From sequence record OP079919.1: a stretch of DNA of 64,000 nucleotides; one strand, given 5' to 3'. How positions within the stretch are numbered: the stretch's first letter is position 1; every line of letters begins with the position of its first letter. Of the stretch, positions 34,269 through 57,242 are shown one piece after another. The notes under the pieces were generated by a model, which saw only the letters and a list, made by a program, of their open reading frames with translations, was not told the DNA's origin and ran no database searches. A program made the position numbers and the translations under genes. This DNA comes from Klebsiella phage KPN8.

Positions 34269-34278
34269 AACGTTGATC

Positions 34279-34313
34279 TACTCCCTCTCCCTATTACGGG
34301 AGAGGGAGTACTC
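34279..34313 (+). terminator. weaker stem-loop at a gene end: 34279..34306
   Basis: Hairpin ctccctctccc-tattac-gggagagggag 3' of the stop codon. Confidence 0.35.
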
Positions 34314-34644
34314 TTATGAATTTATTTTTAGTTAATTAATGTTAAACCTAGGATATTATAGTATAATTAGCTCTAGCGCTATATATTAGGCCGAAGGCCT
34401 AAAGGGTTAGGGTAAGTCAATTCGTTCGTTTCAGCATCAATCAAGGTATTCGCTACGCTCATACTTTCTTATGCTTACACTCACCCATGCAACCTGGAGA
34501 GAAACCCCGACTGAACAAAGTTGTTTATTCCTTCTCAGGGGAATAAACAGTTCGTCGGCTAAAGACATAGGATGTTTTATGATCAGTAAAGAAATACGAT
34601 AATCTAAACTTATTAGTTCAAACACTGTAATCTAGGAGATAACC

Positions 34645-34761
34645 ATGAATATCATAATGCCATTAAAGCTACTCGGAGGGTTACTTATCCTGGGAGTGGG
34701 TTTTGGATTACTGGTTTATCTCATTGTTAAACTCTCCGTTAAAATGGCGTATAAAAAATGA
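34645..34761 (+). CDS. 38-aa hydrophobic micro-protein (not in the supplied ORF track)
   Basis: Perfect SD 'taggagataacc ATG'. Translation MNIIMPLKLLGGLLILGVGFGLLVYLIVKLSVKMAYKK is a single TM helix. Its stop overlaps the next start (ATGA). Confidence 0.35.
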   Translation: MNIIMPLKLLGGLLILGVGFGLLVYLIVKLSVKMAYKK

Positions 34762-35708: not shown

Positions 35709-36029
35709 ATGACGTACAATGAAGTCGAGAAATATCTGGAAATGGGAGAGGCCGTCTCTAGGCGTAGTTGGAAAGCGAACGAAGCGGTTTATTTAGAGCC
35801 GACGACGTTACTTAATCCAGCGCACTATCCTGAGTGTTTAAAAGCCGCAGGTATTAACTCCCTTTTGAGAGTCGATCGACATTTAGTGCGTGTTACCGCG
35901 AGTAACACTGTTGAGCGTTTTATTCCCAACTTTGTAGAAAGAAACGAAAACGATTGGTACGTTAAAAGTTATACCTTCGAACAAAATAAAGCATTACCAG
36001 AACATAATCAAGCACAAGAAGTCGCATAA
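35709..36029 (+). CDS. DUF2829/Tad2-like small protein (candidate signalling-nucleotide sponge)
   Basis: N-terminus MTYNEVEKYLEMGEAVSRRSWKANEAVYLE fits the DUF2829 pattern M-x-F-x-EA-x(3)-L-x(2)-G-x(2)-V-x-R-x(2)-W ... Y-L as I recall it. About 100 aa. Confidence 0.35.
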   Translation: MTYNEVEKYLEMGEAVSRRSWKANEAVYLEPTTLLNPAHYPECLKAAGINSLLRVDRHLVRVTASNTVERFIPNFVERNENDWYVKSYTFEQNKALPEHNQAQEVA

Positions 36030-36034: not shown

Positions 36035-36045
36035 CCCCCCCCCCC
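36035..36045 (+). repeat. intergenic C11 homopolymer tract
   Basis: acaccccccccccctacac between the stop of the DUF2829-like gene and its terminator hairpin. Confidence 0.6.
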
Positions 36046-39692: not shown

Positions 39693-40046
39693 ATGAAGAA
39701 AATGAGTACATTTCTGTTAGTTGTATCCGGCTGGTTCGCTCTGTCTATTATCTGTGTCGCTGGCTACTCCTTCGTAAGAGAGGGGTGGAAAAAAGAAGAT
39801 CTCTCTTGGTCGGAGTTTATTAAACAAAGCACGATCTGCGCTAACGTCATTAAAGACAAAGCGGCGCATAAACCTCACGATGTGACTCTGGGGGATTTCT
39901 TAAGCTCCGAAGAAGTTAAACCCTGGTTAAAAGGTTTTGACTACGACGTTGAAGAGAAAACCGATTCTTACGTTATTACGTTGAGAACCCCGGCGCACGC
40001 AAGAGATTTCCTGTTACCACGACAGTTGTTTCCTAATGCCGCATAA
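39693..40046 (+). CDS. signal-anchored membrane protein
   Basis: MKKMSTFLLVVSGWFALSIICVAGYSFV N-terminal TM. SD 'aaggatgaagaaa ATG'. Confidence 0.5.
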   Translation: MKKMSTFLLVVSGWFALSIICVAGYSFVREGWKKEDLSWSEFIKQSTICANVIKDKAAHKPHDVTLGDFLSSEEVKPWLKGFDYDVEEKTDSYVITLRTPAHARDFLLPRQLFPNAA

Positions 40047-40049
40047 AAC

Positions 40050-40105
40050 AGTATAGTCCATCCCCTAGGGGATGGACTATACTCAACATTTCATTTTTTT
40101 TTTCA
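40050..40105 (+). terminator. intrinsic terminator before the tailspike array
   Basis: agtatagtccatcccctaggggatggactatact, then a T10 run. Confidence 0.65.
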
Positions 40106-40195
40106 CTAACGAATTTTATGCTTTGAAAACCGAGTATGTGGGACGCCGCATAAACGTAATCATACATGTATGCTTATTGGTGAATAGAGGACGCT

Positions 40196-42076
40196 ATGAC
40201 CACACCAACTCAACTACCGATACCCAGTAGCAATTTGCTGGATTCGAGATTTAACTTTGAGAAGTTAGACCAGATAGTAAACTCAGATGCCGATTTCTAT
40301 TTGGACCGTTTTGGCAAACAACGTCTTACCGTTTTGGGCGCCACCAATCAGCTCATCCAAAGCCTGAAAGATCAAACTGGTGCCAACAATGTAACCTACG
40401 TCAAATCCAAGGTGGATAAAGTACTGTCATCGATAGGGTATTCCCTTGACGTCATTCCAATGAATATCTTTGACAAGGCTTATTTGTGTTCGGGAACTGA
40501 CAACCCAGATCCTAATACTTGGATCTGGACCGCCGCCCTGCAGGGCGTTTTATCGGATATCGCTTCTTATAAGCTTTTTACCCTCAACGGAAATGACTAT
40601 TATACAACTTTCTCCCTACGAATACCTGGAGGGGTTTATCAGATCGACGATCTGGTTAGTTTGGGTAAGGTAGCAGGGACTGGAGGAGGAGCATCCTTTA
40701 GGACCAACATCGTTATCAACGGAGATGGAAAAAGCAGTTCGGTTCTTCGTCTTATAGGTGATGATAAACAATTGTTTAAATTCACAGAAAGCCGTTTAGT
40801 CATGAGGGATATAGGGCTTCAAACTAACGGGGCTCGTAACATAGGGATGGAATTAGGCGATCAAAATAATTGGGTCCCGATGGCCCACTCCCATCTTGAC
40901 AATGTTTCGATTACCGGATTTTGTCGCGGATTGCTAATAAGCCATTGCTTTGACAGCACGTTCGATTCTTTATTCATATCCGAGATAGCCGATACGGGTA
41001 ATGCGGTTATACCCGCTACCGGTATTGAAATTGCGCAGTTTTTAGGAAAAGATTCCTCTAACAATCCAGATAACTCTAACCAACTGACGTTTATTAACTG
41101 TGTAGTTGAGACGGCTAGGACCGATAACGCTATTTTGTTTTACGTCAACGGAATTAGTAAAAGTTATCCCCACCACGCCATCAACTTCTTAGGTGGGCAC
41201 CTGGAAACCCATAGACGGAACACGGTCTGTTATAAATTTAACAACATGGCCCTGTCAACCTTCACAGGAGTGACATTCAGTCAGAACGGCACTGATTCTA
41301 CTAACCCTGTAAACGTTGGGGTAATAACTGACTCCTGGAATATTATCTTTAATGGCGGAAGAACAGTAACCAATAATGCTAAAAACACTTACGATGATAC
41401 TTGGGATAAATTGATAACCGTAGCGGGATCTAGCATGGGGATCACGTACATGAATCATCATTTTATTACCCCATACCAGACGTATTCTTCGTATAACCGT
41501 AATGCCAACACCGTGTTCAATTTTACCGGGGCGACCGCGGGAATAAACGCCATCGATGCCGATCGCTGTAGATTGAACGACTTCACGTTCAAGCCGTTCA
41601 CCAAATCTATAGAAATAACCAGAATGGATTTGATTACTCAGCGTTTCAGGATATCCGTAAACACTTCTGGTAGTCTGGTTTTCGCGTACTCTAATGATGT
41701 TACTGGCGCCGCCGCTATGACGGATTTGGTAACCATCACCAATACAGGGAATGCGACTTTTCTTGGGTCCGTTACGGCAACTAACGTAACCGGGACGTCC
41801 GATGAGAGGTTAAAAACAGAAATAGGAGAAGTTGATCAAGTTTTAATTGATGTTGTTAAAAGTCTACGGCCTAAGAAGTATCGACTGAAAAACGACCCCC
41901 AAAACAAAATTAGAGTGGGATTCATCGCCCAAGACCTAATAGAACTTATGGATAAAGCTGGATTGGATTTCAAGAAATACAGTATTATCGCAGAGTTTAA
42001 TATTCCTGGGGATGATTCAGAAAACACGTATTATTCCTTGGACTATGATGAAATAATGTTGTTAAGATCCTTGTAG
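40196..42076 (+). CDS. tailspike/depolymerase-like protein 1 with C-terminal S74 intramolecular chaperone domain
   Basis: Conserved N-terminal module MTTPTQLPIPSSNLLDSRFNFEKLDQIVNSDADFYLDRFGKQRLT. Beta-helix body. C-terminus TGTSDERLKTEIGEVDQ ... GFIAQDL matches the S74 self-cleaving chaperone signature (S-D-x-R-x-K). Confidence 0.8.
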   Translation: MTTPTQLPIPSSNLLDSRFNFEKLDQIVNSDADFYLDRFGKQRLTVLGATNQLIQSLKDQTGANNVTYVKSKVDKVLSSIGYSLDVIPMNIFDKAYLCSGTDNPDPNTWIWTAALQGVLSDIASYKLFTLNGNDYYTTFSLRIPGGVYQIDDLVSLGKVAGTGGGASFRTNIVINGDGKSSSVLRLIGDDKQLFKFTESRLVMRDIGLQTNGARNIGMELGDQNNWVPMAHSHLDNVSITGFCRGLLISHCFDSTFDSLFISEIADTGNAVIPATGIEIAQFLGKDSSNNPDNSNQLTFINCVVETARTDNAILFYVNGISKSYPHHAINFLGGHLETHRRNTVCYKFNNMALSTFTGVTFSQNGTDSTNPVNVGVITDSWNIIFNGGRTVTNNAKNTYDDTWDKLITVAGSSMGITYMNHHFITPYQTYSSYNRNANTVFNFTGATAGINAIDADRCRLNDFTFKPFTKSIEITRMDLITQRFRISVNTSGSLVFAYSNDVTGAAAMTDLVTITNTGNATFLGSVTATNVTGTSDERLKTEIGEVDQVLIDVVKSLRPKKYRLKNDPQNKIRVGFIAQDLIELMDKAGLDFKKYSIIAEFNIPGDDSENTYYSLDYDEIMLLRSL

Positions 42077-42160
42077 TTTGGGAAATTGGGGGCGTATTTT
42101 TAACTAACGTACCATAACGTCCCCCCCCCACTCCAATTTAGTCAAACAAAGGGTGTTATG
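42077..42160 (+). promoter_or_regulatory. conserved tailspike leader element, copy A (imperfect inverted repeat, C9 tract, AGTCAAACAAAGGGTGTT ATGATGAC)
   Basis: Homologous to 54481..54577 at the nucleotide level: ggaa(a)ttggggg..tttttaac(t/c)aac(g/t)taccat..c(a)ccccaatt(t/c)agtcaaa(c/t)aaagggt. Confidence 0.35.
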
Positions 42161-44299
42161 ATGACGACTCCAACTAAGAACGACATTCCAAGCAATAATT
42201 TGTTGGATGCTCGTTTTAACTTTGAAAAGCTCGATCAGATTGTTAATAGCGACGCGAACTATTACCTTGATCGATTTGGTAAACAACGACTCACTTCGGC
42301 CGGATTGGAAGATTTAGCCAGACGATTATCTGAAGATTATGAATCCACCCTATCTAATCAGGATGGGTATAAGAAAATGGGGATGGTGTCTGATTTTACT
42401 ACTCTCAGAACTATCGCCCCAACAATGGAAGGTCAACGCATTCTGCTCAGGTCGGTTGACGCTGGTTCGAATAATGGATCGGGAGAGTTTATAGGACATT
42501 TAGGGAGCAATGGGGTTGACGACGGGGTTAATGTCGCGGTGGGATCCAACTTCTATTGGGAGAGGCTTTCGACTGATTTTGTTAAATCTTCTTCTATAGG
42601 TGATTACACTCGGATTAACTCCTTTATTTCAGCCGGAAATAAGAAGATCACTGTCGATGCCGATCTCAGCGGGTGGCTTAACGTCAAAAGTAACACCACG
42701 ATAACTTTTAACCCATTGTGTCGGCTGATACCTGATACCGATGACAAAGTCGGCATAAGTATTAGAGGAGCCGCCCCAACCTCCTATGTTAATCTAGCTA
42801 CTGATGCATTAGGGATAGATGGCTCAATTACCACCACTAATGACGTTTTTAACATTGGTGATTGGCTGGAAATTAGATCCAACAAGGTTCTTCCCGGCGC
42901 GAATTTTTATCAGGTTAAGCAATCTGTTTTACGCAAAGTGCTTCGTAAAACACAAAATGGAAATGGAACTTGGACATACCGTCTCCACAGTAGTTTAGGT
43001 TATAACTTTAACGTCAGCGACGGTGCTTCCGCTGGGGTTGCGACAGTATTGGAAAATATTGTTATCGATGGGGCTAACTTAAATAAAGACAATTTCACCA
43101 ATATCTTCACCATAGGGATAAACTGTTATTACGTTTATAACCTCACTATAAAAAATATCAACCTATTCGGAACAAAAGTAAAGGATTCTGCCTCAGACAC
43201 TCCAGGAAGATCCGGAATAAAACTGTATAATTGCGTTAACGTTAGAATCGATAATGTGAACGCCTCTTATATAGGGTGGTATGGTGTAGAGGTTATGGGA
43301 TGCAGTGAAAACGTAGATGTAAATCGTTTATACGGTGTGGATTGTCGACATACCGTTTCCATGAACTGGATCGAATCTGGCGACCTTTATGGTGGGCCTA
43401 TGTGGGTTTCGGTAAGGAACTCAGCAAGTCACGCTGCAAGATTAAGTGGGTTTGACACTCATGATCTAGGAAAGGGGATCGCATTTATTAATTGCCAGAG
43501 TTTCGATTCTGGTGATGATGGATTCCAAGTAAGGGCGATGGACACCGTTCTAATCGATTGCCATGCTGAAGGATCGACACTTGATGGCTTCGGCGGCGCT
43601 ACTGGCGCAAAGAACAGCAAATTAGTAAACTGTTCTTTCAACTACAACGTCAGATACGGAATTAATTTAGGTTATGAAGGCGGTATTGTTATCGACTGTG
43701 ACGTCGATAATAACGGTTACATGGGGATTTGTACCATCGGCGGACTCATTCAAGGAGGGTCGGTCACCAATAATTATCCGGCTGCTATCGATATAGGCGC
43801 CGGATTTAATGCCGCCCAAACCGATCTCAAAATCGATGGTGTTAGAATGCCCTCTTCGACCGCCCAGACAAAAATTTTGAGTTTTGCTGGTGACGCGGTA
43901 GCCGCTAACAACAAACCTGAGTTGGTTAGAATGGAAAATTGTTACGTTCCTGGTTACGGAAGAGATTGGGTCAGACTGGTATCGTTCACCGTCCAACCTT
44001 TACCCCCGGTGCTTAATAATAATCTACTTACTTCCAGCTTAACCTCCCCTGGAAAAATAAGCGGGCAAGTCCAATTATCTGCAGGGACAGCCACGGTGAC
44101 AACCACAGAGGTTTTCTCACAACTTGGTAGCGGTGCAAATGTTTTAAAATACTCATCGCAGATTAAGTTGAAACCTATCGCTCGTTCTGCCAATATAGGC
44201 GCTCATTATGTTTCAGCAATCAACAACGGGACGTCCTTTGTAATCAATTCAACCAATTCCTCGGATGGCTCGACCATTTATTGGGAAATAACACTTTAA
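42161..44299 (+). CDS. tailspike/depolymerase-like protein 2
   Basis: N-terminal ~45 aa nearly identical to protein 1 (MTTPTKNDIPSNNLLDARFNFEKLDQIVNSDANYYLDRFGKQRLT). Beta-helix segments (NCVNVRIDNVNASYIGWYGVEV, IDCHAEGSTLDGFGG). A second ATG lies at 42158. Confidence 0.8.
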   Translation: MTTPTKNDIPSNNLLDARFNFEKLDQIVNSDANYYLDRFGKQRLTSAGLEDLARRLSEDYESTLSNQDGYKKMGMVSDFTTLRTIAPTMEGQRILLRSVDAGSNNGSGEFIGHLGSNGVDDGVNVAVGSNFYWERLSTDFVKSSSIGDYTRINSFISAGNKKITVDADLSGWLNVKSNTTITFNPLCRLIPDTDDKVGISIRGAAPTSYVNLATDALGIDGSITTTNDVFNIGDWLEIRSNKVLPGANFYQVKQSVLRKVLRKTQNGNGTWTYRLHSSLGYNFNVSDGASAGVATVLENIVIDGANLNKDNFTNIFTIGINCYYVYNLTIKNINLFGTKVKDSASDTPGRSGIKLYNCVNVRIDNVNASYIGWYGVEVMGCSENVDVNRLYGVDCRHTVSMNWIESGDLYGGPMWVSVRNSASHAARLSGFDTHDLGKGIAFINCQSFDSGDDGFQVRAMDTVLIDCHAEGSTLDGFGGATGAKNSKLVNCSFNYNVRYGINLGYEGGIVIDCDVDNNGYMGICTIGGLIQGGSVTNNYPAAIDIGAGFNAAQTDLKIDGVRMPSSTAQTKILSFAGDAVAANNKPELVRMENCYVPGYGRDWVRLVSFTVQPLPPVLNNNLLTSSLTSPGKISGQVQLSAGTATVTTTEVFSQLGSGANVLKYSSQIKLKPIARSANIGAHYVSAINNGTSFVINSTNSSDGSTIYWEITL

Positions 44300-44357
44300 C
44301 CTTTGCTGGATGGTGATTGGTCGACGCCGGTCTAAAACTAATTTGTTAGGGTCATTT

Positions 44358-44391
44358 AAAATCCAACCGGTCTTAAGACCGGTTGGATTTT
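44358..44391 (+). terminator. intrinsic terminator
   Basis: aaaatccaaccggtc-ttaa-gaccggttggatttt with a 15-bp stem and flanking A/T runs. Confidence 0.65.
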
Positions 44392-44433
44392 ATGCTTACC
44401 GATATTTCAACCTTCCTGACCCGAGGAATAGCA

Positions 44434-46665
44434 ATGACTTTACCAACGCAAAAACCTATTCCGAGTTCATCCATAACTGATCAATTATTTAATGCCGAAA
44501 AGATAGATCAGGTTGTTAACTCGGATGAACTAGAATATTCCGATCGTTTCGGAAAGAAACGATTCACCTTTTCAGGATTATACAACGTTGTACAGAATTG
44601 GATCAGCAGTTTGGGGTCAAGTTCCGGGGCGTCAGCTGTAGGTCTTAGCCAGGGCGGTACGGTTCAGGCCGGTCTCTACAACGTTGTTAATGTCGAACAA
44701 TTCGCTTATCTCAATACTTCAGATGATGATTGGGGTCCGGCTTTTAGAGGGGCCAGGGATAAAGCAATCGAGATATCTGCTCCGGTCGTTACTTTTAAAG
44801 GTCAGTACAAAATAAAAGTAAGCTCCGGTCCGACCACTCACACCCTGCCTTTCGACGACGGAACTTACGATACAAGAAGAACTGGCGAAGTTTTACTTTC
44901 TCCAGAAACCTTGAATACAATGCCTGTAGGATTGGAATGGCCTTCCGGACTCTCCCTTAAATCAGACGGGATCGGAAATAACTCAATTACTTTCGATTGG
45001 GATAATGCCACTGTTGGGCTGTCTCAGGGGATTGGTATCTGCATCAGGGTCAGAAACTGGGACGGAACTTATCTTGCTAAGGCCGGGTCAGTTAATCGCA
45101 TGAATAGCGATATAGCCAATGTGGAGTTTGATGGGTTTAGCGTAAATAATGCCTTTATCGGAATACTGGCCGACGGTATCGTGGGATCAGTCAGTTGGGG
45201 CAGTCTCCAGTTTAAGAAATGTTTCTTACCTATGACTTGGCAGGGCGCCGACAGATGCACGATTAAGAAACTGAGATTTACAGATTGTCCTACCGGATTC
45301 TCGGTAGGTGGATGGTGGCTGACCCGTAACGACATATCAGGATCCAATACCGGATTGGGGGTCCCGCCTTACATTGCAGGAACCGACGTGTACTGCATCG
45401 GATGGATGGACTTCGTTAAAATTGAATCTCTGGAGTACTCTAATAGTACTTCGTTTGACAATTCCCCGTTGTTTGCCGCGGTAGATACTTTCTTCGACAC
45501 CTATTTCTACAAAAGCGCGAACAGCGCTAGAACTGCTAGTGGTGGTCGATGCACTAATACAGGCCCTAACCTAACTAGCGCGAGTACGTTAGCGGCAGAT
45601 TCTCCGTTCTTAGGTATCGCCGGGCGCGCTCACTCACAAATGGGGCGTTACCACCGAAATCACATCTTGAATGAAATTATTTCTCTCAAGACGTGGGGAT
45701 GTTTCAGGGCATCAGTCCTTACCACTGCTAATGGAAACTCGGAGCTCAACGTCCCGGGGTGCATAGTGGGTACCGCGTACATCGAACAGGCCTGTAAGGT
45801 CACGGTTGGCGGTGACGCCACGGTGGGGGGAAGTAATGACTTCGTTACATCAGGTAAAGATGTTTGGAAAGGGACAAAAACTTATTCTAAGTATTATGCT
45901 GGTGAAGGATCCGTAATCGTTAAAGATGGATGGTCTGTTAATAGTTTGGGGTTGTTCCCGTCAGCGCGGACTGTTGCAAGAAATGATAATGGGTATAATA
46001 ACAGACTAAGAAGAACAATTGTCGACGATGGCACAGGGAAACCGGTCATACTCGAACAGCTTTCTGAAACGGTCTATGCGACCCCTCCTCAGAAATTTAT
46101 TCCTAACGCCGTGGGTTCAGTAGACGACAAATATTACTGGGTTCAACTAGAAAAGAACGTCTCTTCAAAGGCTACTATTTATTCTGGTGTTCCAACGACG
46201 GCGGCGCAAACACCTATAACCTCTCCGGCCATTAAAGTAATAATGGAACGTTTAGGTAACAGAGTTAAATTAAAAATTAATTTGGATGCGTCAAATTACG
46301 CAGCCGGCGGCAGTAATCCGGTGGTAATCGGATTTACTGGGGTCTATAAACCTATTCTTACTGCAAGTCCCGATTACGCCCTTGGGGCGTACGGTCCGGT
46401 GAGACCCATAATGGTCAGCACCAAAACATTTACAGTTACCGATTCTACTTCAGTGAGTCGGACGTTTAGGATCGAGCCGGTCGCGCATCAAGCTGGGGTA
46501 TTCACTGATGGCGGCGGGGTTAATAATTACTACTTTGTTTTGCTCACCCAGCATCATACTTCTGACACTAATAGACTGTTGTGGTCGGATTTCACCGGTT
46601 CGTTATGTCAGATAGAAATAGAATATGATACGAATGACGCTATCACTTCATCCAGCGTATTTTAA
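44434..46665 (+). CDS. tailspike/depolymerase-like protein 3
   Basis: Start moved to MTLPTQKPIPSSS so that the conserved module begins the protein. The listed 44383 start lies inside the upstream terminator hairpin. Shares an extended ~75-aa N-terminus with protein 4. Confidence 0.75.
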   Translation: MTLPTQKPIPSSSITDQLFNAEKIDQVVNSDELEYSDRFGKKRFTFSGLYNVVQNWISSLGSSSGASAVGLSQGGTVQAGLYNVVNVEQFAYLNTSDDDWGPAFRGARDKAIEISAPVVTFKGQYKIKVSSGPTTHTLPFDDGTYDTRRTGEVLLSPETLNTMPVGLEWPSGLSLKSDGIGNNSITFDWDNATVGLSQGIGICIRVRNWDGTYLAKAGSVNRMNSDIANVEFDGFSVNNAFIGILADGIVGSVSWGSLQFKKCFLPMTWQGADRCTIKKLRFTDCPTGFSVGGWWLTRNDISGSNTGLGVPPYIAGTDVYCIGWMDFVKIESLEYSNSTSFDNSPLFAAVDTFFDTYFYKSANSARTASGGRCTNTGPNLTSASTLAADSPFLGIAGRAHSQMGRYHRNHILNEIISLKTWGCFRASVLTTANGNSELNVPGCIVGTAYIEQACKVTVGGDATVGGSNDFVTSGKDVWKGTKTYSKYYAGEGSVIVKDGWSVNSLGLFPSARTVARNDNGYNNRLRRTIVDDGTGKPVILEQLSETVYATPPQKFIPNAVGSVDDKYYWVQLEKNVSSKATIYSGVPTTAAQTPITSPAIKVIMERLGNRVKLKINLDASNYAAGGSNPVVIGFTGVYKPILTASPDYALGAYGPVRPIMVSTKTFTVTDSTSVSRTFRIEPVAHQAGVFTDGGGVNNYYFVLLTQHHTSDTNRLLWSDFTGSLCQIEIEYDTNDAITSSSVF

Positions 46666-46680
46666 CATTTAAGGTGTGAT

Positions 46681-48441
46681 ATGACGCTCCCAACTCAAAA
46701 CGCTGTTCCTAGTTCAGCTAAGAACGACCAGCTCTTTAATGCTGAAAAAATAGATCAGGTCGTCAATAGTGACGACCTCCAGTACACAGATCGCTTCGGT
46801 AAGAAGCGATTTACTTTCTCTGGTTTATACAACATAATCCAAACATGGGTTGCGAGTTTAAGTGATACCACCGGAGCAGGATCGGTCGGGATCGCGCAAG
46901 GGGGGTACATCCAGCAATCTCTTTTGGAAGTGACACCGATGATGCAAGGTGCCGTAGGAGACGGCGTCGCTGATGACTCACAGGCGTTGATCAAAACATT
47001 TACTACTGCTAAAACACTTGGATTGCGGGTTAAAATAGATCGCGCTTATCTTTGCTCCTCAGCGCTTGCCGTTTCTGGACCGCTATACTTAGAAGGAATC
47101 AACCCGGAAACAGGAAAAATTATTTTTACAAATAAAGATGACTTCGGTCTTTACATTACTCAGATCAAATCCACAGACTTCATAACCATAAAAAATATCA
47201 GCATTACGGCCGGAGCTAAAATCGTTAATCCAAAGGGCCTCCTAACCATCGACGGAAGCTCTCAATTAACAACTGATCAGTCGGCAGGCAAATACCTCTT
47301 AGCAGATAGGACAATCCGCCGCGGGCTGTTGGATAATGTTAATCTCGATTGCCTTAGTGGGAACTACGCGGTTAACTACCTTAACATTATTTCATGGATG
47401 AATTATTCCGTTAGAAACATATTGATAAGAGGGTCAAGGGACAACCTGTCGGCGCTCACTAATGGAATACTTTTAAACGGCGATGGTTTCCCCGTCGACA
47501 TCCACATGACCGACCTTTTGATGTATAACCTAGGTCGGGCTATTAACTCCGTGGATTACGTGGAAGGACTCCACATTTCAGAGTTTGAATTTGTAAACGT
47601 TTTAAGGGGGATTAGCGCCGATTACGACTCAAATTATTCCAAACTCAGCTCATCGGTATGCGGATGTTACGGACCTATGATTCACACGGGTCATGTAAAC
47701 CTGGGAACGATGACTGGCGCTGACTCATGCATTTACATTAAAAATACTGTCACTCCTCGTATCAAAGATCTTTTGCTTTTCAATAGCGCCGGCGCTGCCG
47801 TCACAAACAGTTACGGGGTTTACGTTTACGGATCAACCAGCGGTGGGGAAATATCCAGCGTTTATGTTGCGGGTGGTGGTGCCGCCAACACGAAGACCAA
47901 TAATTATTCAATTAGAGTATATGGCGCCAATGGATTAAACATCAAGGACTGTACCGGAAGCTATGCGGGAGCCGTAGTGTATCTTGAAGGGGTTTCCACT
48001 AACTGTGTCATATCAGGAAATAGTGGTATCAGCACCACTAACGTCGTTTATATTTTCAGTGCCAATAACGCCAACAATAAAATAACTTCTGATAACTCGG
48101 GAATAGGAATCACGGATAAGGTGGTCGGCGGAGATCCTAGCGGGTCTTATGTGGAACCTCTAATCTGGCAGAGGAAGTACACACTGAATTTAGCCGCGGC
48201 CAAAGATGCCGGGACGTCTTTCACTTTTAACGTCCCGATTCCCGGGGGAAATTTTGGTGTTGCTCCAGATGCCGCTTTCGCGACATTACCCTCCAATCTT
48301 ATCGGACAATTTTCATATAACCCTTCGGCCAGTTCAGCAACAAGTCTGAATGTAACCATTTATTTTATCTCGGCCGCAGCCATAGGGAGTTACGATATTT
48401 TAATTTCGGCAGCTGGTTTTGGCGTAAGCAGAACGCAATAA
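46681..48441 (+). CDS. tailspike/depolymerase-like protein 4
   Basis: MTLPTQNAVPSSAKNDQLFNAEKIDQVVNSDDLQYTDRFGKKRFTFSGLYN. Only 15 nt downstream of protein 3, so co-transcribed. Confidence 0.75.
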   Translation: MTLPTQNAVPSSAKNDQLFNAEKIDQVVNSDDLQYTDRFGKKRFTFSGLYNIIQTWVASLSDTTGAGSVGIAQGGYIQQSLLEVTPMMQGAVGDGVADDSQALIKTFTTAKTLGLRVKIDRAYLCSSALAVSGPLYLEGINPETGKIIFTNKDDFGLYITQIKSTDFITIKNISITAGAKIVNPKGLLTIDGSSQLTTDQSAGKYLLADRTIRRGLLDNVNLDCLSGNYAVNYLNIISWMNYSVRNILIRGSRDNLSALTNGILLNGDGFPVDIHMTDLLMYNLGRAINSVDYVEGLHISEFEFVNVLRGISADYDSNYSKLSSSVCGCYGPMIHTGHVNLGTMTGADSCIYIKNTVTPRIKDLLLFNSAGAAVTNSYGVYVYGSTSGGEISSVYVAGGGAANTKTNNYSIRVYGANGLNIKDCTGSYAGAVVYLEGVSTNCVISGNSGISTTNVVYIFSANNANNKITSDNSGIGITDKVVGGDPSGSYVEPLIWQRKYTLNLAAAKDAGTSFTFNVPIPGGNFGVAPDAAFATLPSNLIGQFSYNPSASSATSLNVTIYFISAAAIGSYDILISAAGFGVSRTQ

Positions 48442-48554
48442 TCTTTTAGTATTTAATAGATTGAGGGCGTGTAATCGATAATAACTGAGGGATGATGATT
48501 AAATTTATATTACGTCGACTTCATCCCAGATTGATCGTCATTTAGGAGTTTTCA

Positions 48555-50696
48555 ATGACACAGCCAACTCAGAATCCTATTCCCAGTGGGAATATACTGG
48601 ATCAGATTTTTAACGCAGAAAAGATAGATGAAGTTGTCAACAGTGGCAGCGAGCAATATACGGATAGGCTGGGAGTTAAAAGATTCACTATAGCCGGACT
48701 CACTGCTTTAGTCAGAAATTTGATCAATTCGATATCGGGGAATACTGGCGGAGGGAACGTAGGATTAGCTAATGATGAAATGCTTCAGTCTTATTTGGAT
48801 AAGTACGAAAATGCGTCATGCTCGATCTTCAAGTTCCTTTCCCCAGAAGAAGCTAGAAATGCGAATTTAAAACTTCTCGTCAATATAGACCAGGCAGTTG
48901 CCTCCGCAGCCGATGCTGGCGTGAGTTCCATTAAACTCCCACCCGGACACTTTGAGTTTAATACCACCACAATGCTTTATAATGTTTGTATTGTGGGTAG
49001 TAATGAATCAGAAGCCCCAGATCTTCAACTCGAAGCGACAGATGGCTCTTCAGGGAAGTTATCACTGAATACCAAAGGTACCGTATTGCACCTTACTGGT
49101 AATTCCGCAGCAAATGGCATCACCTTTAATACGAATACCCCGTCGTCTTCTGTAGTTGGGGTAAGCCGTTGTTCTGTTTATTATCCCGATCAAGACTGGG
49201 CCAACTGGTCAGTGGGAGGGACAGATATAGATGGCGTGACTTATTATCAGCCGACGGTGTACCCGGCGGCGTTTATAATAAACGGTGGAATGCGGGCTTT
49301 CTTCGATAAAGTCTTTTTTATCAACGCATATCAATGGATAGAAATAAGAGACACCCAAATACCGATGATCGGTAAGATAGCGGGAACCCTCATCAATCGT
49401 GGTGTTCAGATCACACGTATGGGAGCGGGAGGATACACGGATACGGTTAACTCCTATCCTTTCTGGACATGGGCTTGTGGGTTTAGGGGTAACTCCATGC
49501 GAGCCAACCTGTACCAAACCTTTAAGGGAATTTGTTATGAGGTAGGTAACGATGACGGAACGACGCGAACTGTAGAACAGATGCTGATTAATCGTCTTAA
49601 CGTTATCGGGTGTGCGGACGGACTCATTTGTGGTGGAAAGGGCGTGACGCTCAATAGCGCTAAATTCGATAACTGTATGCGAGCCATCACGGTTAACAGT
49701 TTGGATAATTCTGCTTACCACAGTTTCAGCAATGTCTGGGCGTCGTGTTATTACAATAACAATTATGTGTTTAAACAGAGAACTGATGGGAGCGTTTACG
49801 TTTTCTCTACGAATAGTTCGACCCCTGTAAATATTAATAATTTTAATGTTGTAAGATCCGACGGTATAGGGATAAACATGCCGTATGCCTCTGGGTCAAA
49901 CATCAGTAATGTGGTCATTCAACAATTGGGTTGGAAAGGGTTTGTTTTGGGTTCTGCCGGAAGAAGCACAGACGTGTTGAATGTTAACACGTGTAATGTG
50001 AACTTTTATACCGGGGATTCGGCTTTAACCCAGATAGGTTATGAGATTGGCGATTTTGTAAGATGCTCGATTAAAGGACTGCAGTACAAAGGTGGGAGTA
50101 ACGTAACGCCTTACGTCATGACAGGGACATTGAATCCGTACGAATCCGGCAAAGAAATAGATTTAAGTTCTCTCGACGGCCCGCTTTATAAAGGGGTAAG
50201 CCAGTCTATCGTTTCTGTTATTCGTGGGAGAATACGCCGTCTTGTGGGGGTAACAGCAAGTTCTACAGACAGTGTTCTCGTGACATCGTTATCGGGGACT
50301 AATACCGGCGGTACAGCTTTAAACTGCGGCGTGGGTGTAAGAAACACGGTATCAACCGGAAATGGCCATGGGGTGTTAGTACTTTATTCGTCTAAGGCGG
50401 GAGAGCTCGTTGAGACAGCAGAAGTTTTTAACGACGGAGCCGTTTTAGGGGTCAGGCCGCGATCAACAACTGCCGTGCTAGGAGATACGAGTAACCCTTG
50501 GAATTCGGCGGATATAAAAACCATCAGGGCGACCTCGTCGATTACACTTAACGGCAATCCAGTTGGGGTTAAAGTTAGTGTGCCGGCGTCAGCTACCGCC
50601 ACTGGAGTGGTAGGTCAGTGGGCGGCCGATACGACCTATATCTATATTTGTGTGGCCACCAATACTTGGGTGAGGGCCAGTTTAGCAACCTGGTAA
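48555..50696 (+). CDS. tailspike/depolymerase-like protein 5
   Basis: MTQPTQNPIPSGNILDQIFNAEKIDEVVNSGSEQYTDRLGVKRFT. TTTAGGAG box upstream. Confidence 0.75.
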   Translation: MTQPTQNPIPSGNILDQIFNAEKIDEVVNSGSEQYTDRLGVKRFTIAGLTALVRNLINSISGNTGGGNVGLANDEMLQSYLDKYENASCSIFKFLSPEEARNANLKLLVNIDQAVASAADAGVSSIKLPPGHFEFNTTTMLYNVCIVGSNESEAPDLQLEATDGSSGKLSLNTKGTVLHLTGNSAANGITFNTNTPSSSVVGVSRCSVYYPDQDWANWSVGGTDIDGVTYYQPTVYPAAFIINGGMRAFFDKVFFINAYQWIEIRDTQIPMIGKIAGTLINRGVQITRMGAGGYTDTVNSYPFWTWACGFRGNSMRANLYQTFKGICYEVGNDDGTTRTVEQMLINRLNVIGCADGLICGGKGVTLNSAKFDNCMRAITVNSLDNSAYHSFSNVWASCYYNNNYVFKQRTDGSVYVFSTNSSTPVNINNFNVVRSDGIGINMPYASGSNISNVVIQQLGWKGFVLGSAGRSTDVLNVNTCNVNFYTGDSALTQIGYEIGDFVRCSIKGLQYKGGSNVTPYVMTGTLNPYESGKEIDLSSLDGPLYKGVSQSIVSVIRGRIRRLVGVTASSTDSVLVTSLSGTNTGGTALNCGVGVRNTVSTGNGHGVLVLYSSKAGELVETAEVFNDGAVLGVRPRSTTAVLGDTSNPWNSADIKTIRATSSITLNGNPVGVKVSVPASATATGVVGQWAADTTYIYICVATNTWVRASLATW

Positions 50697-50697
50697 T

Positions 50698-50736
50698 AAT
50701 TATTACTCCTTCTCCGGTTAACCGGAGAAGGAGTAA
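50698..50736 (+). terminator. intrinsic terminator
   Basis: ttactccttctccgg-ttaa-ccggagaaggagtaa. Confidence 0.55.
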
Positions 50737-50821
50737 TAGATACGTCCGATTTTATGCTGATCTAAATTCAGTAGACTTGCGCAAGTCTTTTATACTACAT
50801 TCTTTTTAAAGGAGTAACCTC

Positions 50822-52711: not shown

Positions 52712-52720
52712 TGGTGAGCT

Positions 52721-52755
52721 AGGGGAGGGGGCGCCCTCCTCCCTTATTTATGAGG
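52721..52755 (+). terminator. weaker, imperfect stem-loop at a gene end: 52721..52745
   Basis: GC-rich imperfect hairpin (one mismatch, two G-U wobbles) 3' of the stop codon, followed by ttatttatg. Confidence 0.35.
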
Positions 52756-52764
52756 TTTCTAAAA

Positions 52765-54480
52765 ATGACCACGCCTACCAATAATGACATTCCGAGCAGT
52801 TCGGTACAAGATAGGTTGTATAACGCCGAGAAATTTGATGAATTCATGAATTCATCGAACACTAATTTCACTGATCGCAAAGGAGTTTCACGATGGACAC
52901 TAAGCGGAATCAGAACTGTTATAAGTAACTGGATGACGAGTCTGAGTAGCAATGCAGGCGGAAACACCATAAAGGTCGATAATGCGCTACTACCAGACTT
53001 GGACTATGCGCCGAGCATTTTTAGATTTATGACCGACGCAGATATCGATTCGATGAAGAACACTCTGGGTAGCGAAGTTCCTGTCGATTACGCCTTACAA
53101 GCAGTTATCGATGCCGGTTATAAGTCAGTCAGATTCCCCCACAACGTTAAGGGCATCTATATTCTTTCTGGGTTGGTAACACTCCCTTCAGCCTTCACAA
53201 TCTTTGGAACGTGTTCCAAACCATATAGTAGTATTACCGACTCTTCCTTCTTAAATAAAGGGGTGACTTTACGTAAAGCCGTCGGGGCGGATTATCTGTT
53301 CGGAGCCGGTTCGGTATTCAGAATTTATGGGTGTAATCTAGATGGAAGAGACAACCTTCGCCCTCTAATCAACCAGACCAATCAAATACGCGGCGGAATA
53401 TTAGAAGATTGCGGGATCTACCGTTTTCTTTATGGAGTCGGGAGTTATGGTTACACCTCTATTGTTGTTAAACGATCATCCATTTGTTCAAATAACATAG
53501 GAATAAGGAACCTTATCGACAGCCGTATTATGGACGTTACCCTCAATGCCAATAAAGGTAACGGGGTCGATAACCAGGTCGGGGCCAATAATAATATTTT
53601 TGAAAACGTCAGGAATGAATGGAATGAAGGGATAGGGTATTATTTTTATGGGTCGGTGGGGAACATCATTACTGGTGAACTTATTGATAGATCTGGTTCG
53701 GCCAATGTTGTCGTCCTGGCCGGTGGATCCGCATTGATTTCAGGGGTTATCTCCCAACGACCCGCTCGTACGTTGAGTGAGGACTCAAGTTATAACACTC
53801 ATTTCTATGTGGCCGGAAGTAAATCAAAACTTTGTTTATCCGGTGTAACTACGGCAACGGGCATTGACGACGGGGGTACCGGAACTTTAACGCCACAAAG
53901 GACAATCGTGATAGGCGGGACGAATACCGACGTGACCGTTCTTTCTAGCGGGTGCGATTTATCGGGAAGTATTCTCTCGCCGTTAAGATTCGACGTTACT
54001 CCAGCTACGGTAGGATTTAGAAACAATATTGGCGTTGACGACTGGGTTAACACCGGGCAATATCAGTTCATCAAAGGAAGAGCGTCGATCGGTAGTCAGA
54101 AAAATGCGGTGATCTTGGCCAGTGGTGTGGGGAGTACCGCGACGTTAGTTTTTGATAACACAGGGTTCGTCGACCCCACTTCTAATTTCCCCGATATACC
54201 TAAGAAACGAAAAATTATCATAGAAAGCATGACTTCGGTATCGGCTTCCAGAACTGTAGGTTTTTATGAAGTTTCGTTATTGACCAGGCGTTTCTCTAGC
54301 ACTGCCGGTTTTGATGTCTTACAGGAAACATCTTATCCTGCTGGAGCGTGGGCGCGGACTACCGCAACTGGTGTTTCTATAAACATTGCCCTCTCAGCGG
54401 ACGCCAAACAGATAACAGTTACGCTAACCAACGTAGATGGCGTCGGAAGATTTATAGATGCTGCTCTTAAGTGGGATTAA
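52765..54480 (+). CDS. tailspike/depolymerase-like protein 7
   Basis: Start moved to MTTPTNNDIPSSSVQDRLYNAEKFDEFMNSSNTNFTDRKG. Shares an extended N-terminus (RWTLSGIR..ISNWMTSL) with protein 8. Confidence 0.75.
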   Translation: MTTPTNNDIPSSSVQDRLYNAEKFDEFMNSSNTNFTDRKGVSRWTLSGIRTVISNWMTSLSSNAGGNTIKVDNALLPDLDYAPSIFRFMTDADIDSMKNTLGSEVPVDYALQAVIDAGYKSVRFPHNVKGIYILSGLVTLPSAFTIFGTCSKPYSSITDSSFLNKGVTLRKAVGADYLFGAGSVFRIYGCNLDGRDNLRPLINQTNQIRGGILEDCGIYRFLYGVGSYGYTSIVVKRSSICSNNIGIRNLIDSRIMDVTLNANKGNGVDNQVGANNNIFENVRNEWNEGIGYYFYGSVGNIITGELIDRSGSANVVVLAGGSALISGVISQRPARTLSEDSSYNTHFYVAGSKSKLCLSGVTTATGIDDGGTGTLTPQRTIVIGGTNTDVTVLSSGCDLSGSILSPLRFDVTPATVGFRNNIGVDDWVNTGQYQFIKGRASIGSQKNAVILASGVGSTATLVFDNTGFVDPTSNFPDIPKKRKIIIESMTSVSASRTVGFYEVSLLTRRFSSTAGFDVLQETSYPAGAWARTTATGVSINIALSADAKQITVTLTNVDGVGRFIDAALKWD

Positions 54481-54577
54481 GTAGCTAAATTCCTTATTAG
54501 TAGTGGAATTGGGGTGTTTTTAACCAACTTACCATTGTCTTTTGCCTCCACCCCAATTCAGTCAAATAAAGGGTTCA
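54481..54577 (+). promoter_or_regulatory. conserved tailspike leader element, copy B (stem gaattggggtg ... caccccaattc with ~33-nt loop)
   Basis: See copy A. The inverted repeat is perfect here, and the element ends in the SD plus ATGATGAC start. Confidence 0.35.
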
Positions 54578-56311
54578 ATGATGACCGCACCGACTAATAA
54601 CAATGTACCGAGTAGCTCGGTTCAAGACAGATTGTACAATGCTGAAAAATTCGATGAATTTATGAATTCGGATAATCCCAATTATACCGATCGTAAGGGG
54701 AACTCCCGCTGGACTCTGAATGGGATAAGAATAGCCATATCCAATTGGATGACGTCATTGGGTACGTCAGTCGGGTCAGCCTATATTGGTAAAGGAAACG
54801 ATACTGTATCCAATCTTTTAGAGGCCTCCATCACTGAATATCTCACCGCTGAAGATCAAAATACACTCAGAAGTTCGTTGGGGGCGGAAGTCAATGTAGA
54901 TTATGCTTTAAAGGCAGCGATCGACGCAGGTATTCTCCGATTAAGATTCCCTAGGATGATAGGGATTTATGTTCTGGGCGCCGACCCTGTTACCCTTCCA
55001 ATAGGCTTTTCTATGGTCGGGGATAGAACCAGGTTATATACAGCGCCTTCCGATTCTACCTTTCTTAACAAGGGTACTGTGCTAAGATTAAGTTCCGGAG
55101 CCTCTTCGCTGTTCTTGTTAACTCAAAAGCATCAGTTTAGCGGAATTAATTTCGATGGCCGTGATAAAACGGTTAACTTAATGAAAGGAGCGGACCAAAC
55201 TCAATTCTGTAGGTTCTATAATTGCGGAATCCATCGATGGTTAAACGGATTGGGCGGATCTTCTTCAGGCGGATATACGGCTACACTTTCAGTATCTTTT
55301 TGTGATATTTCTGGAAATTATCGGGGCGTGCGTAATCTTATCGATTCCAAAATATCGGATAGTACCATTAACGCCAATGACACCAATGGGGTCGAACTTA
55401 ACGTAGGCGCCAATAACAACGTCTTTATTAATGTCAGAAACGAATGGAACAATGGCGTTAACTACTACGGGTATGGGGGTAAGCGCAACATCGTCGTCGG
55501 GGAGCTATGCGATCGAGCCGGACTCAACGGAATTGTTGCTGCGGGAGGCGCCCAGTGGTCCCTCGAAGGAGTGAATGTGCAGCGTTCGGGCAGGCTCGCC
55601 ACCCAGGGATCTGTCGACGACGCCCATTTCTATGTGACTGGTGAAGGATCATCTATCATAATGAGCGGAGTTTACACAACTCAAGGCTCTGACGATACAG
55701 GGGGTGGGAGAGTCTCCCCGTCGTACACTCTGGCTGGTGGAGGAAATTCATCTGACACGAAAACATTCTCGGCCGTGAACAGCGTCTTGAGCGGATTTGG
55801 GGTTTCAGCGATAAGACCTGGGTCCTCCACTTTCTCTAATATGAGCGTTGTGGGTTGTAACGGCTTTTACGATAGAATATCCGGAAACACAATAAATTTC
55901 TACGAAGGAAACTTCTCTTTGGGGAAAAGGGCTTCGTCGTTGAGTTTAAGTGGAACGGGTTCTACGGCACAGATCACATTCCCTACAACAGACTCGTTTC
56001 CGCAATACAGGGTGGGTTTTACCAGACAGTTGCATATAACAGCTAGGAACAACATCAATACGGGATCGGTCGCTTATTACAACGTCCCGCTATTCTTTTA
56101 TAGAGAACAATCGACCGCCGTTGTGCGAGCGAATACAAGTAAAGAAGAAACAATGGTGACCCTCAGCGGAGGAACTTGGGGTTTAACCGCGGCGTCCCCG
56201 ACCGGGGTCGCTATTGACCTGGCGGTTTCTTCTGATGGCCTGACGTTAACCGTAACGCTGACAGCCATCGATAACTCATCAAGAATCATTGATGTGGAAC
56301 TGAGGGCTTAA
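54578..56311 (+). CDS. tailspike/depolymerase-like protein 8
   Basis: MMTAPTNNNVPSSSVQDRLYNAEKFDEFMNSDNPNYTDRKG. The upstream leader is homologous to the leader of protein 2. Confidence 0.75.
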   Translation: MMTAPTNNNVPSSSVQDRLYNAEKFDEFMNSDNPNYTDRKGNSRWTLNGIRIAISNWMTSLGTSVGSAYIGKGNDTVSNLLEASITEYLTAEDQNTLRSSLGAEVNVDYALKAAIDAGILRLRFPRMIGIYVLGADPVTLPIGFSMVGDRTRLYTAPSDSTFLNKGTVLRLSSGASSLFLLTQKHQFSGINFDGRDKTVNLMKGADQTQFCRFYNCGIHRWLNGLGGSSSGGYTATLSVSFCDISGNYRGVRNLIDSKISDSTINANDTNGVELNVGANNNVFINVRNEWNNGVNYYGYGGKRNIVVGELCDRAGLNGIVAAGGAQWSLEGVNVQRSGRLATQGSVDDAHFYVTGEGSSIIMSGVYTTQGSDDTGGGRVSPSYTLAGGGNSSDTKTFSAVNSVLSGFGVSAIRPGSSTFSNMSVVGCNGFYDRISGNTINFYEGNFSLGKRASSLSLSGTGSTAQITFPTTDSFPQYRVGFTRQLHITARNNINTGSVAYYNVPLFFYREQSTAVVRANTSKEETMVTLSGGTWGLTAASPTGVAIDLAVSSDGLTLTVTLTAIDNSSRIIDVELRA

Positions 56312-56378
56312 GGTTATTTCCTACGAAGTGTTAATGCTATGAAGGTAAGGAGTTAACCCACACACAGCAGGTACTTAT

Positions 56379-57152
56379 ATGCATAATCGTAGTGTTAAGC
56401 GTGCTAACCGCGACGCTCGTCGCGAAGCAAGACGTCAAGATAAGTCCCAAAGTAGCCAACTGAAACTGGTGGACAGCAATTTCAGTGAAGTAAATCTACC
56501 TCTTGCAAAAGCTGATCGGAGTAAGATTGAGCCGAAAAACCCAATGCAGCAAAAATATTGGGATGGGTTACATGCCCACGATGTTGTCATCGGTATAGGG
56601 GAAGCGGGTAGCGGTAAAACGTTCCTCCCAACTTGTTATGCCGCGGAACGTCTGATGGCTAAAGACGTGGAAAAGATCATCGTTACACGGCCAGTTTTAC
56701 AGGCCGATGAAGATCTGGGTTTTCTCCCCGGGGATGTTAATGAGAAATTCGCACCTTACTTCCGACCGGTCTACGATATCTTACTGAAACGCCTGGGTGG
56801 TGGAATGCTCAACTATTGCATGAAGCCTGGCGTGGAGAAAGTTGAAGTCGCCCCCTTTGCTTTTATGAGAGGTCGTACTTTTTCTGACTCAGTAGTGATT
56901 CTTGACGAAGCGCAAAACGTTACAGTCATGCAGATGAAAATGTTCATCACTCGTATGGGTGAGAACACTACGGTAATCATCAACGGCGACCTTACCCAGT
57001 GCGATCTTCCTAAAGGAGTTAAATCCGGTCTGGAAGATCTGCTGGAACGCATCGAACGAGATCCTGAAAATGGATTCCCGGTTTATCGTTTCAACGCCGC
57101 TGATAGTGTGCGGTCAGATATTTGCTCCAAAGCCCTGAAGCTTTACAAATAA
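56379..57152 (+). CDS. phoH: PhoH-like ATPase
   Basis: P-loop GIGEAGSGKTFL. VILDEAQN Walker B. Overall PhoH architecture and size. Confidence 0.85.
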   Translation: MHNRSVKRANRDARREARRQDKSQSSQLKLVDSNFSEVNLPLAKADRSKIEPKNPMQQKYWDGLHAHDVVIGIGEAGSGKTFLPTCYAAERLMAKDVEKIIVTRPVLQADEDLGFLPGDVNEKFAPYFRPVYDILLKRLGGGMLNYCMKPGVEKVEVAPFAFMRGRTFSDSVVILDEAQNVTVMQMKMFITRMGENTTVIINGDLTQCDLPKGVKSGLEDLLERIERDPENGFPVYRFNAADSVRSDICSKALKLYK

Positions 57153-57200: not shown

Positions 57201-57242
57201 GCGCCACGGCCATTTATGAACTTTTCATAAGAGACTGTAATC

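Follow-up and report, generated by a model that had tools for sequence, protein, structure and literature searches.

A hairpin-forming leader family at tailspike gene junctions of Miamivirus-like Klebsiella jumbo phages: a candidate intercistronic RNA spacer

The 64,000-nucleotide (nt) stretch of Klebsiella phage KPN8 analysed here (sequence record OP079919.1; hereafter the window) carries an array of tailspike genes in which two non-adjacent members, T2 and T8, are preceded by homologous leaders, copy A (42066..42165, + strand) and copy B (54488..54585, + strand), each organised around a hairpin. The reading favoured here, to which we assign about even odds (probability about 0.5), is that this leader is a structured intercistronic RNA spacer within a late polycistronic mRNA, duplicated through a shuffling of tailspike modules that is mediated by their N-terminal coding box. 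Sequence comparison demonstrates the evolutionary part of this reading, that is, the existence of a family, its modularity and the position of a crossover site, and from the same comparisons we infer a function of the hairpin at the RNA level.

The initial annotation had proposed that the leaders of T2 and T8 are homologous, and this was confirmed over a slightly longer extent (nhmmer E = 8e-31 for copy A and E = 3e-28 for copy B). Their local alignment scores 55, against 15.7 ± 2.5 for dinucleotide-shuffled controls (z about 16, and about 16-24 over the shuffle tests), this being the highest score among 435 intergenic pairs of the window, with the runner-up at 29, and the corresponding MAFFT alignment shows 79% column identity. 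The shared diagnostic motifs TTTTTAACYAACKTACCAT and CCAATTYAGTCAAAYAAAGGGT, already pointed out in the annotation, are each found exactly at these two sites, with 0 to 0.13 occurrences expected by chance. The homology extends from (A)TCCTT, which lies within a few bases of the upstream stop codon on one side or the other, to ATGATGAC, conservation inside the leader being blocky rather than uniform in the A/B alignment. On the contrary, the coding DNA of T2 and T8 right after the start codon is 49% identical, with matches at 15 of 50 third codon positions (30%), which indicates that synonymous sites are saturated between the two genes. An identity of ~80% in the leader beside saturated synonymous sites implies that the leader is constrained, or that it was copied later than the flanking genes.

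Copies A and B share the same succession of parts, all of them on the + strand. The span of copy A takes in the last three codons of the upstream gene T1, its 5' block ATCCTTGTAGTTT (42066..42079) overlapping the T1 stop codon TAG at 42074-42076. The 5' stem arm AAATTGGGG (42083..42091), the conserved loop block TATTTTTAACTAACGTACCAT (42095..42115), a C9 homopolymer that forms the 3' part of the loop (42121..42129) and the 3' stem arm CTCCAATTT (42131..42139) follow, and the 3' block AGTCAAACAAAGGGTGTT (42140..42163) then provides a Shine-Dalgarno-like AAGGG and an ATGATG, the second ATG of which gives the MTTPT start typical of the tailspike family. Copy B consists of the 5' stem arm GAATTGGGGTG (54506..54516), the conserved loop block TTTTTAACCAACTTACCAT (54517..54535), the 3' stem arm CACCCCAATTC (54549..54559) and the 3' block AGTCAAATAAAGGGTTCA (54560..54583), again with a Shine-Dalgarno-like motif followed by ATGATG. 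Loop blocks were delimited by motif comparison and arms by reading of the sequence and of a pair table. The counterpart of the copy A 5' block reads CCTTAT..AGT in copy B and in the family members P and M described below, and takes the more diverged form CCTCATAAATAGT in a further member, Y4. Reading the leader for small open reading frames (ORFs) disclosed just frames of 3-12 codons, not conserved between copies.

Copy B contains the perfect 11-bp inverted repeat initially attributed to it (54506-54516 / 54549-54559), with a loop of 32 nt. The accompanying statement that the downstream arm of copy A is replaced by the C9 run proved wrong, as CTCCAATTT is present there and forms 9 pairs with AAATTGGGG, one of them G-T. 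It is the 3' part of the loop whose place the C9 run takes; joined to ACGT, the run is able to form pairs with GGGGGCGT (42088-42095), and this alternative inner stem, GGGGGCGT/ACGTCCCC, is the RNAfold minimum-energy fold. When the outer stem is read in register across B, A, Y4 and M by means of an explicit pair table, 11 of 11 positions are paired in B, 12 of 12 in Y4 (13 in all), 9 of 11 in A and 7 of 11 in M. At its base the stem has G-C in B, against A-T in the other copies, which amounts to one compensatory swap; one extra C-G pair has been inserted in both arms of Y4, and the G-T pair of copy A is tolerated in the sense-strand RNA only. Where the outer stem is weakened, another pairing of G-rich with C-rich sequence closes the same loop, namely the C9 stem in A and GTGGGAG/CTCCCGC in M. 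One swap, one paired insertion and one change from G-C to G-T over four copies are suggestive, if thin, indications that the stem is kept by compensatory change. Loops range from 17 to 32 nt within the family and are less conserved than the arms. The C9 tract of leader A has a sole companion among long intergenic C runs, a C11 homopolymer at 36035-36045 of the window, just after the ORF at 35709-36029, which is hypervariable (C10 in phiKp_32, C11 in YC1 and C12 in Miami).

These three names belong to close relatives of the window phage. Bases 20000-40296 of the window are 93-95% identical to the Klebsiella phages phiKp_32, Miami (genus Miamivirus) and YC1, to the 'Stenotrophomonas' phage BUCTxx100 and to the Raoultella phage VB_ZK_P1, all of them jumbo phages of ~250 kb, and at sequence level the window is identified as a Miamivirus-like Klebsiella jumbo phage. 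The family was explored with nhmmer, using a profile of A and B over all fetched DNA (window and relatives). Three further members, P, M and Y4, are present in phiKp_32 and YC1, while Miami, BUCTxx100 and VB_ZK_P1 contain no copy by this element profile.

Copy P (phiKp_32 locus L001, 28717-28780; YC1 locus L002, 16896-16960) aligns with both A and B at z = 15-17 and comprises the 5' block, the G arm and the loop as far as TTTGCCTCC, where it is truncated. A MAFFT alignment hinted at likeness of its right half to A and B, yet that similarity is not significant and the breakpoint is a true one. The DNA after P is a tailspike C-terminal remnant, 54% identical to the end of the K751 tailspike, and VB_ZK_P1 has a longer version of this pseudogene, its coding sequence at that place being TTGGCCTCCAGAGCG; therefore, the deletion in phiKp_32 and YC1 appears to have joined the loop sequence TTTGCCTCCA to a near-identical coding 10-mer. 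The deletion endpoint thus lies inside the leader loop, with a microhomology of 9 of 10 nt between TTTGCCTCCA and the coding sequence TTGGCCTCCA. Decaying tailspike pseudogenes occupy the last array slot before PhoH in VB_ZK_P1 (locus L005, 15002-15502), phiKp_32 (L001, 28780-29028) and YC1 (L002, 16960-17208); that of VB_ZK_P1 has a T8-type N-terminus fused to the C-terminal remnant, with an internal stop, and phiKp_32 and YC1 keep the remnant alone, annotated as small hypothetical proteins.

Copy M is found on the minus strand of YC1 (L002, 19694-19624), directly after the stop codon of a minus-strand tailspike gene, and aligns with A and B at z = 11-12. The 5' block, TATTTTTAAC and the 3' arm CCACCCCAATTT are retained in M, which, being followed by just ATGACATC and a terminator, is considered a solo leader. 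Y4 is the leader of the YC1 tailspike gene at 10701, and its arms AAATTGGCGGTGG and CCACCGCCAATTT form 13 perfect pairs around a 17-nt loop. This loop is unrelated to those of A and B, and the 3' flank of Y4 is nearly identical to that of M (z = 13 against M). The family layout can be written as stop codon, 5' block, arm RAATTGG(C)GGTG, loop, arm CACC(G)CCAATTY, Shine-Dalgarno block and start codon, with TTTTTAAC in the loop of four of the five members (TATTTTTAAC in A and M).

Beyond these members, the hairpin leaders of VB_ZK_P1 and of T5 in the window are not significantly similar to the family (z about 1 or below). The T5 leader (window 48442-48554) has an architecture like that of A and B, its 7-bp G/C stem, GGGATGA/TCATCCC, enclosing a 25-nt AT-rich loop, and carries no ATTTTATG, the octamer discussed below. 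Exact-pattern scans of IMG/VR, metagenome and genome collections, run for the loop block by itself and together with the G arm, gave nothing but chance matches in unrelated contexts, and distant blastn searches of phage records returned nothing for copy B, just a 33-nt match to P for copy A, and just itself for M. A protein search with the T8 N-terminus produced no candidate, an anchor profile run in IMG/VR led to contigs of 40-50 kb without the element, a PhoH search in IMG/VR found just relatives of 44% identity, and cmscan of 40000-57000 against Rfam (E <= 10) gave no match overlapping A or B. The family is small and lineage-specific, being limited to three genomes (the window phage, phiKp_32 and YC1) in the data examined. 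The core of its loop block, AACYAACKTA, has 5 matches in the window, against about 0.5 expected, and also occurs in the 3' coding part of the genes upstream of both leaders, at 41779-41788 (T1) and 54426-54435 (T7). The T1 site, AACTAACGTA, is the loop A variant, and the T7 site, AACCAACGTA, has the C of loop B at the Y position and G instead of T at the K position; both encode Thr-Asn-Val in beta-helix-rich proteins and may be a coincidence.

The relationships of the adjoining genes indicate that, contrary to what had been supposed, the leader did not travel with its gene during duplication. T2 and T8 are not closest paralogues: the N-terminus of T2 is closest to that of T1 (81% amino acid identity), that of T8 is closest to T7, and T2 and T8 reach 45% over 51 amino acids (aa). 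Moreover, the first tailspike of phiKp_32 agrees with T1 from the upstream terminator through codon ~21 and with T2, at 98%, from codon ~19 onwards, and the phiKp_32 orthologue of the T2 body has no such leader and sits instead behind a terminator and a ATTTTATG motif. The switch from T1 to T2 takes place within an 11-nt identity, TTTAACTTTGA, in the N-terminal coding box, alignment placing the left crossover zone in the T1 box (40250..40260, + strand) and the right one in the T2 box (42215..42225, + strand). Therefore, the window and phiKp_32 differ by one homologous exchange between N-terminal boxes, which by this alignment deleted or inserted the segment formed by the T1 body, leader A and the first 18 codons of T2. 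The tailspikes downstream of family members fall into three N-terminal subtypes (T2-, T8- and T5-type), the genes on the upstream side are four unrelated ones, and the left edge of homology coincides with the element start in all copies. As judged from these arrangements, the gene bodies on both sides can be exchanged relative to the leader, which acts as a module of its own, accompanying its neighbours when they recombine and left solo after loss of a spike (P and M).

The signals that surround the array delineate its probable transcription units. In phage phiKZ, the terminator motif consists of a hairpin and TTAT (PMC10914365) and the late promoter of T(-3)ATG(+1) (PMC7598289). The annotation of Miami points to phiKZ-like relatives, a paper on nucleus-forming phages that encode chimallin cites Miami (10.1101/2023.02.24.529968), and the window phage belongs to the chimallin-encoding jumbo-phage group. 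In the window and its five relatives, the tailspike genes that come first in an operon are preceded by a perfect G+C-rich hairpin and then by (G)ATTTTATG(C) or TTATTTATG; the (G)ATTTTATG form follows a terminator hairpin upstream of T1, T3, T6, T7 and the minus-strand tailspike gene, with the same arrangement in all six phages, in agreement with the phiKZ terminator and late-promoter signals. The T1-A-T2 unit starts with ATTTTATG at 40113..40120 (+ strand) after the hairpin at 40050-40083, a terminator-like hairpin (44367-44386) and then GATTTTATG (together 44367..44394, + strand) mark its end and the start of the T3 unit, and the hairpin GGGGAGGGGGCGCCCTCCTC (52722-52741) followed by CCTTATTTATG (together 52722..52752, + strand) marks the start of the T7-B-T8 unit. 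Sites of the (G)ATTTTATG or TTATTTATG type in the window lie at 40113-40120, 44387-44394, 50749-50756, 52744-52752, 8789-8796 and 57210-57218, and at 61301-61294 on the minus strand. From its sequence and position, this motif is probably the late promoter of this phage group, of phiKZ-like TATG type.

Copies A and B display none of these features. Neither contains TATG or the (G)ATTTTATG motif, a consensus scan of A (42066-42165) and B (54488-54585) detected no sigma-70-like or terminator-like site, and their stems are followed by AGTCAAA, with no T run or TTAT. In ~240 kb of DNA from the window and its relatives, the loop block TATTTTTAAC is not found again ahead of other genes, and is therefore not a general promoter. 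Lacking the promoter-like and terminator signals of operon starts, each leader is placed inside a late operon, and the late units would be T1-A-T2, T3-T4-T5, T6 and T7-B-T8(-PhoH). Other internal tailspike genes of the arrays also have a hairpin and then a Shine-Dalgarno sequence before them, without ATTTTATG; hence, A and B represent one sequence family within a general architecture of stop codon, hairpin, Shine-Dalgarno sequence and ATG.

Under the favoured reading, A and B would be transcribed as internal parts of the late operons T1-A-T2 and T7-B-T8-PhoH, and the hairpin would act in the RNA, either as a decay barrier or processing site or as a weak attenuator. Alternatively, the hairpin spacer might draw the stop codon of the upstream gene near to the ribosome-binding site of the next one, and any such role would tune the amount of the second tailspike that is made. 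The two genomic copies would result from homologous recombination that takes place within the conserved N-terminal anchor box and reshuffles tailspike modules, the leader being a passenger between modules and not a segment copied together with one gene. Intercistronic mRNA hairpins are known to set differential stability or processing within operons, as do stabilisers of the repetitive extragenic palindrome (REP) type and the RNase III sites of phage T7. Like them, A and B lie between two cistrons of one presumed transcript, have a conserved stem with a freer loop, and are followed by a single-stranded A/U-rich stretch and a Shine-Dalgarno sequence. They differ in that stems of 9-13 bp are shorter than typical RNase III substrates and in that the conserved loop block has no counterpart there. 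On these features, A and B would be assigned to the conserved intercistronic stem-loop spacers of phage operons.

Several observations weigh against the spacer reading. The high identity of the leaders could partly reflect a recent gene conversion limited to the leader instead of selection, and read-through, processing and the effect on expression are all inferred. Covariation comes down to four sequences and two events, with a degenerate stem in M (7 of 11), and RNAalifold gave no meaningful consensus on an automatic alignment, in which the arms of Y4 and M were misaligned. Folding energies over 96 nt are near those of shuffles (z of +0.2 for A and -0.8 for B), and energy z-scores are mostly unremarkable (+0.2 to -1.6), the trimmed 63-nt hairpin of B alone reaching -2.4. 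In addition, a function of the stem alone leaves the well-conserved loop block of A, B and P unexplained, and a loop of 32 nt is unusual for stabiliser or terminator hairpins.

Comparison with other known systems helps to situate the element. The promoter-early stem-loops (PeSLs) of T4-type phages (Arbiol et al. 2010, PMC2839356; Comeau et al. 2014, PMC4122927) are likewise short, conserved, non-coding stem-loop modules, repeated beside variable genes where the genome of a large myovirus is plastic; PeSLs are also sited at the boundaries of swapped or deleted modules, as the present copies may be. Copies repeated beside variable genes are indeed observed here, all in tailspike arrays: the window has two, and phiKp_32 and YC1 contribute three further members. 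PeSLs are, however, composite terminator/promoter units and A and B show neither signal, and the base-resolved crossover lies here in coding DNA. The element was rejected as a PeSL, being a stem-loop with a loop of 32 nt (B) or 21-39 nt (A), no T run and no sigma-70-like promoter; the PeSL-like sequences of this genome are instead the intergenic units made of a terminator and GATTTTATGC. With regard to phiKZ-type signals (PMC10914365, PMC7598289), A and B share with them a position directly after a stop codon, with G-rich and then C-rich arms as in the terminators of this phage, and differ in a loop of 21-32 nt instead of 3-6 nt, in the absence of TTAT or TATG and in that the ribosome-binding block of the next gene follows. 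Loops of 21-32 nt and an AGTCAAA after the stem, unlike the hairpins at 40050-40083, 44367-44386 and 52722-52741, led to rejection of an intrinsic or phiKZ-type terminator, and the lack of TATG in both copies to that of a phiKZ-type late promoter. A relation to miniature inverted-repeat transposable elements (MITEs) or to an insertion sequence (IS) was also discarded, inverted repeats being present, with no target-site duplication and, by nhmmer, no copies in unrelated contexts. The attC sites of integrons are imperfect inverted repeats whose core sites read RYYYAAC ... GTTRRRY and which are associated with a tyrosine integrase. An attC-like site was dismissed in turn, the loop having TTTTAAC with no GTTRRRY partner at the 3' end, and most tailspike genes lacking a copy (no integrase search was made).

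Among the explanations that compete with a structured spacer, a passive homology is a serious, if rather doubtful, contender. The leader would then be ancestral tailspike-junction DNA without a function of its own, copied by recent recombination or gene conversion and not yet decayed. Such an origin is favoured by the plain reshuffling of tailspike modules in this group, by the persistence of the solo or truncated P and M without a downstream gene, by folding energies mostly within the range of shuffles, and by a tiny family confined to three genomes. Nonetheless, ~80% identity in the leader next to saturated third positions would demand a conversion tract ending exactly at the start codon, the arms of Y4 are kept, with a paired insertion, despite an entirely different loop, and a blocky pattern of conservation is not the uniform one that passive copying would leave. 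It seems unlikely that A and B contain a promoter for a phage RNA polymerase (TTTTTAAC, or TATTTTTAAC in A and M) or a leaky terminator (a G/C stem with AATTT) serving T2 and T8. The polarity of the arms, G-rich on the 5' side and C-rich on the 3' side, is that of the terminator hairpins of this phage, AATTTT comes after the stem in Y4 and M, and strong conservation marks the loop block of A, B and P. Against this count the missing TATG in A and B, when all operon-first tailspikes carry (G)ATTTTATG, the lack of TATTTTTAAC ahead of other genes in the ~240 kb surveyed and the failure of the consensus scan to find such a site in either copy, together with long loops (21-32 nt) and no T run, which are poor terminator features, and the complete lack of the loop block in Y4.

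The initial annotation left open whether the sequence is regulatory or recombinational; its conservation above neutral expectation, with the stem arms kept, is upheld and a regulatory nature is probable, while the demonstrated exchange site lies elsewhere. A DNA-level recombination module, understood as a PeSL-like cassette boundary or structure-specific site promoting gain, loss and swapping of tailspikes, is regarded as improbable. In five different contexts, copies do stand at the boundary where non-homologous upstream genes meet tailspike starts, the inverted repeat has a variable centre, and PeSLs offer a precedent for regulatory stem-loops mediating modular shuffling (PMC4122927). The related idea of a hotspot for cassette exchange gains weak support from the one deletion endpoint inside the loop, which is, however, explained in P by the 9-of-10-nt microhomology with coding DNA; the sole base-mapped crossover is in the N-terminal coding box, homology between the arrays of relatives is in general confined to promoter/leader and N-terminal box segments, most of them without the element, most tailspike genes have no copy, and no recombinase is implicated. 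More improbable still is its strongest version, a dedicated, structure-recognised tailspike-cassette junction, equivalent in phages to PeSL or attC-type boundaries, actively promoting insertion, deletion or inversion of receptor-binding genes and so driving host-range change in jumbo Klebsiella phages, which was considered because copies occur at five module boundaries and on both strands, two of them solo after tailspike loss, and one deletion ends in the loop. Finally, insertion of a miniature mobile element next to tailspike genes, be it of MITE type or a derivative of an IS200/IS605 end, is barely credible. Terminal inverted repeats of 11-13 bp, copies on both strands in different contexts and TnpB genes in relatives would suit it, to be set against the lack of any visible target-site duplication, the confinement of copies to intervals that separate a stop codon from a tailspike start, always in sense with respect to the tailspike genes beside them, the recovery of the known P copy alone when phiKp_32 locus L001, which holds a TnpB gene, was searched with nhmmer, and the absence of copies elsewhere in the window, the relatives and public collections.

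The array in which the leaders are embedded consists of T1-T8, co-oriented at 40196-56311, and of a ninth tailspike gene on the minus strand, 58655-61225. All nine encode a common N-terminal module of 50-70 aa (MTxPTxNxIPS...FNxEKxDxxVNSD), the rest of the proteins being divergent except in T7 and T8, which are full-length paralogues of 42.5% identity, and with the exception of T2 the bodies of the array have no DNA match in the relatives. Upstream of copy A, T1 (40196..42076, + strand; 626 aa) combines the N-terminal anchor with a C-terminal Peptidase_S74 chaperone domain, and downstream of it T2 (42158..44299, + strand; 713 aa) has K1-lyase-type domains and a beta-helix. Copy B is flanked by T7 (52750..54480, + strand; 576 aa as listed) and by its paralogue T8 (54578..56311, + strand; 577 aa), which from residue ~55 onward resembles the depolymerase spikes of many unrelated Klebsiella phages. 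Since the listed ATG of T7 falls within the promoter-like motif at 52744-52752, translation of this gene probably begins instead at the ATG at 52765 (MTTPT).

The many depolymerase tailspikes of the Klebsiella jumbo phages K64-1 and RaK2 possess conserved N-terminal anchor modules. The present array resembles them in its short common attachment module and exchangeable enzymatic bodies; that system concerns proteins, while the element described here is a non-coding spacer before some of the genes. The anchor motif [FY]N[AFS]E[KQ]xD... also appears at protein starts in many IMG/VR contigs of 40-50 kb (L133-L164) with 43-54% identity, suggesting that the module is common to much smaller phages too. 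Outside the array, the window has an unusually long intergenic region at 34269-34757 (489 nt), with no + strand ORF of at least 60 aa, and the apparently corresponding region of phiKp_32 carries an IS200/IS605-type TnpB gene (L001, 7876-9012), a second copy of which lies elsewhere. The region of the window may be an empty or remnant insertion site.

Klebsiella jumbo phages with many tailspikes are candidates for therapy due to their broad and modular host range, and engineering or predicting such arrays requires knowledge of their transcription layout, of the balance between spike amounts and of the points at which spikes can be swapped. The working map of the array that emerges has units bounded by the late-promoter-like ATTTTATG and terminators, hairpin spacers inside them, and the N-terminal box as demonstrated crossover site. 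The leader is a small, lineage-restricted part of this map and a modest feature. Should the hairpin indeed adjust how strongly the second spike is expressed, the leader would be of use as an engineering part; otherwise, it would be a marker of past recombination.

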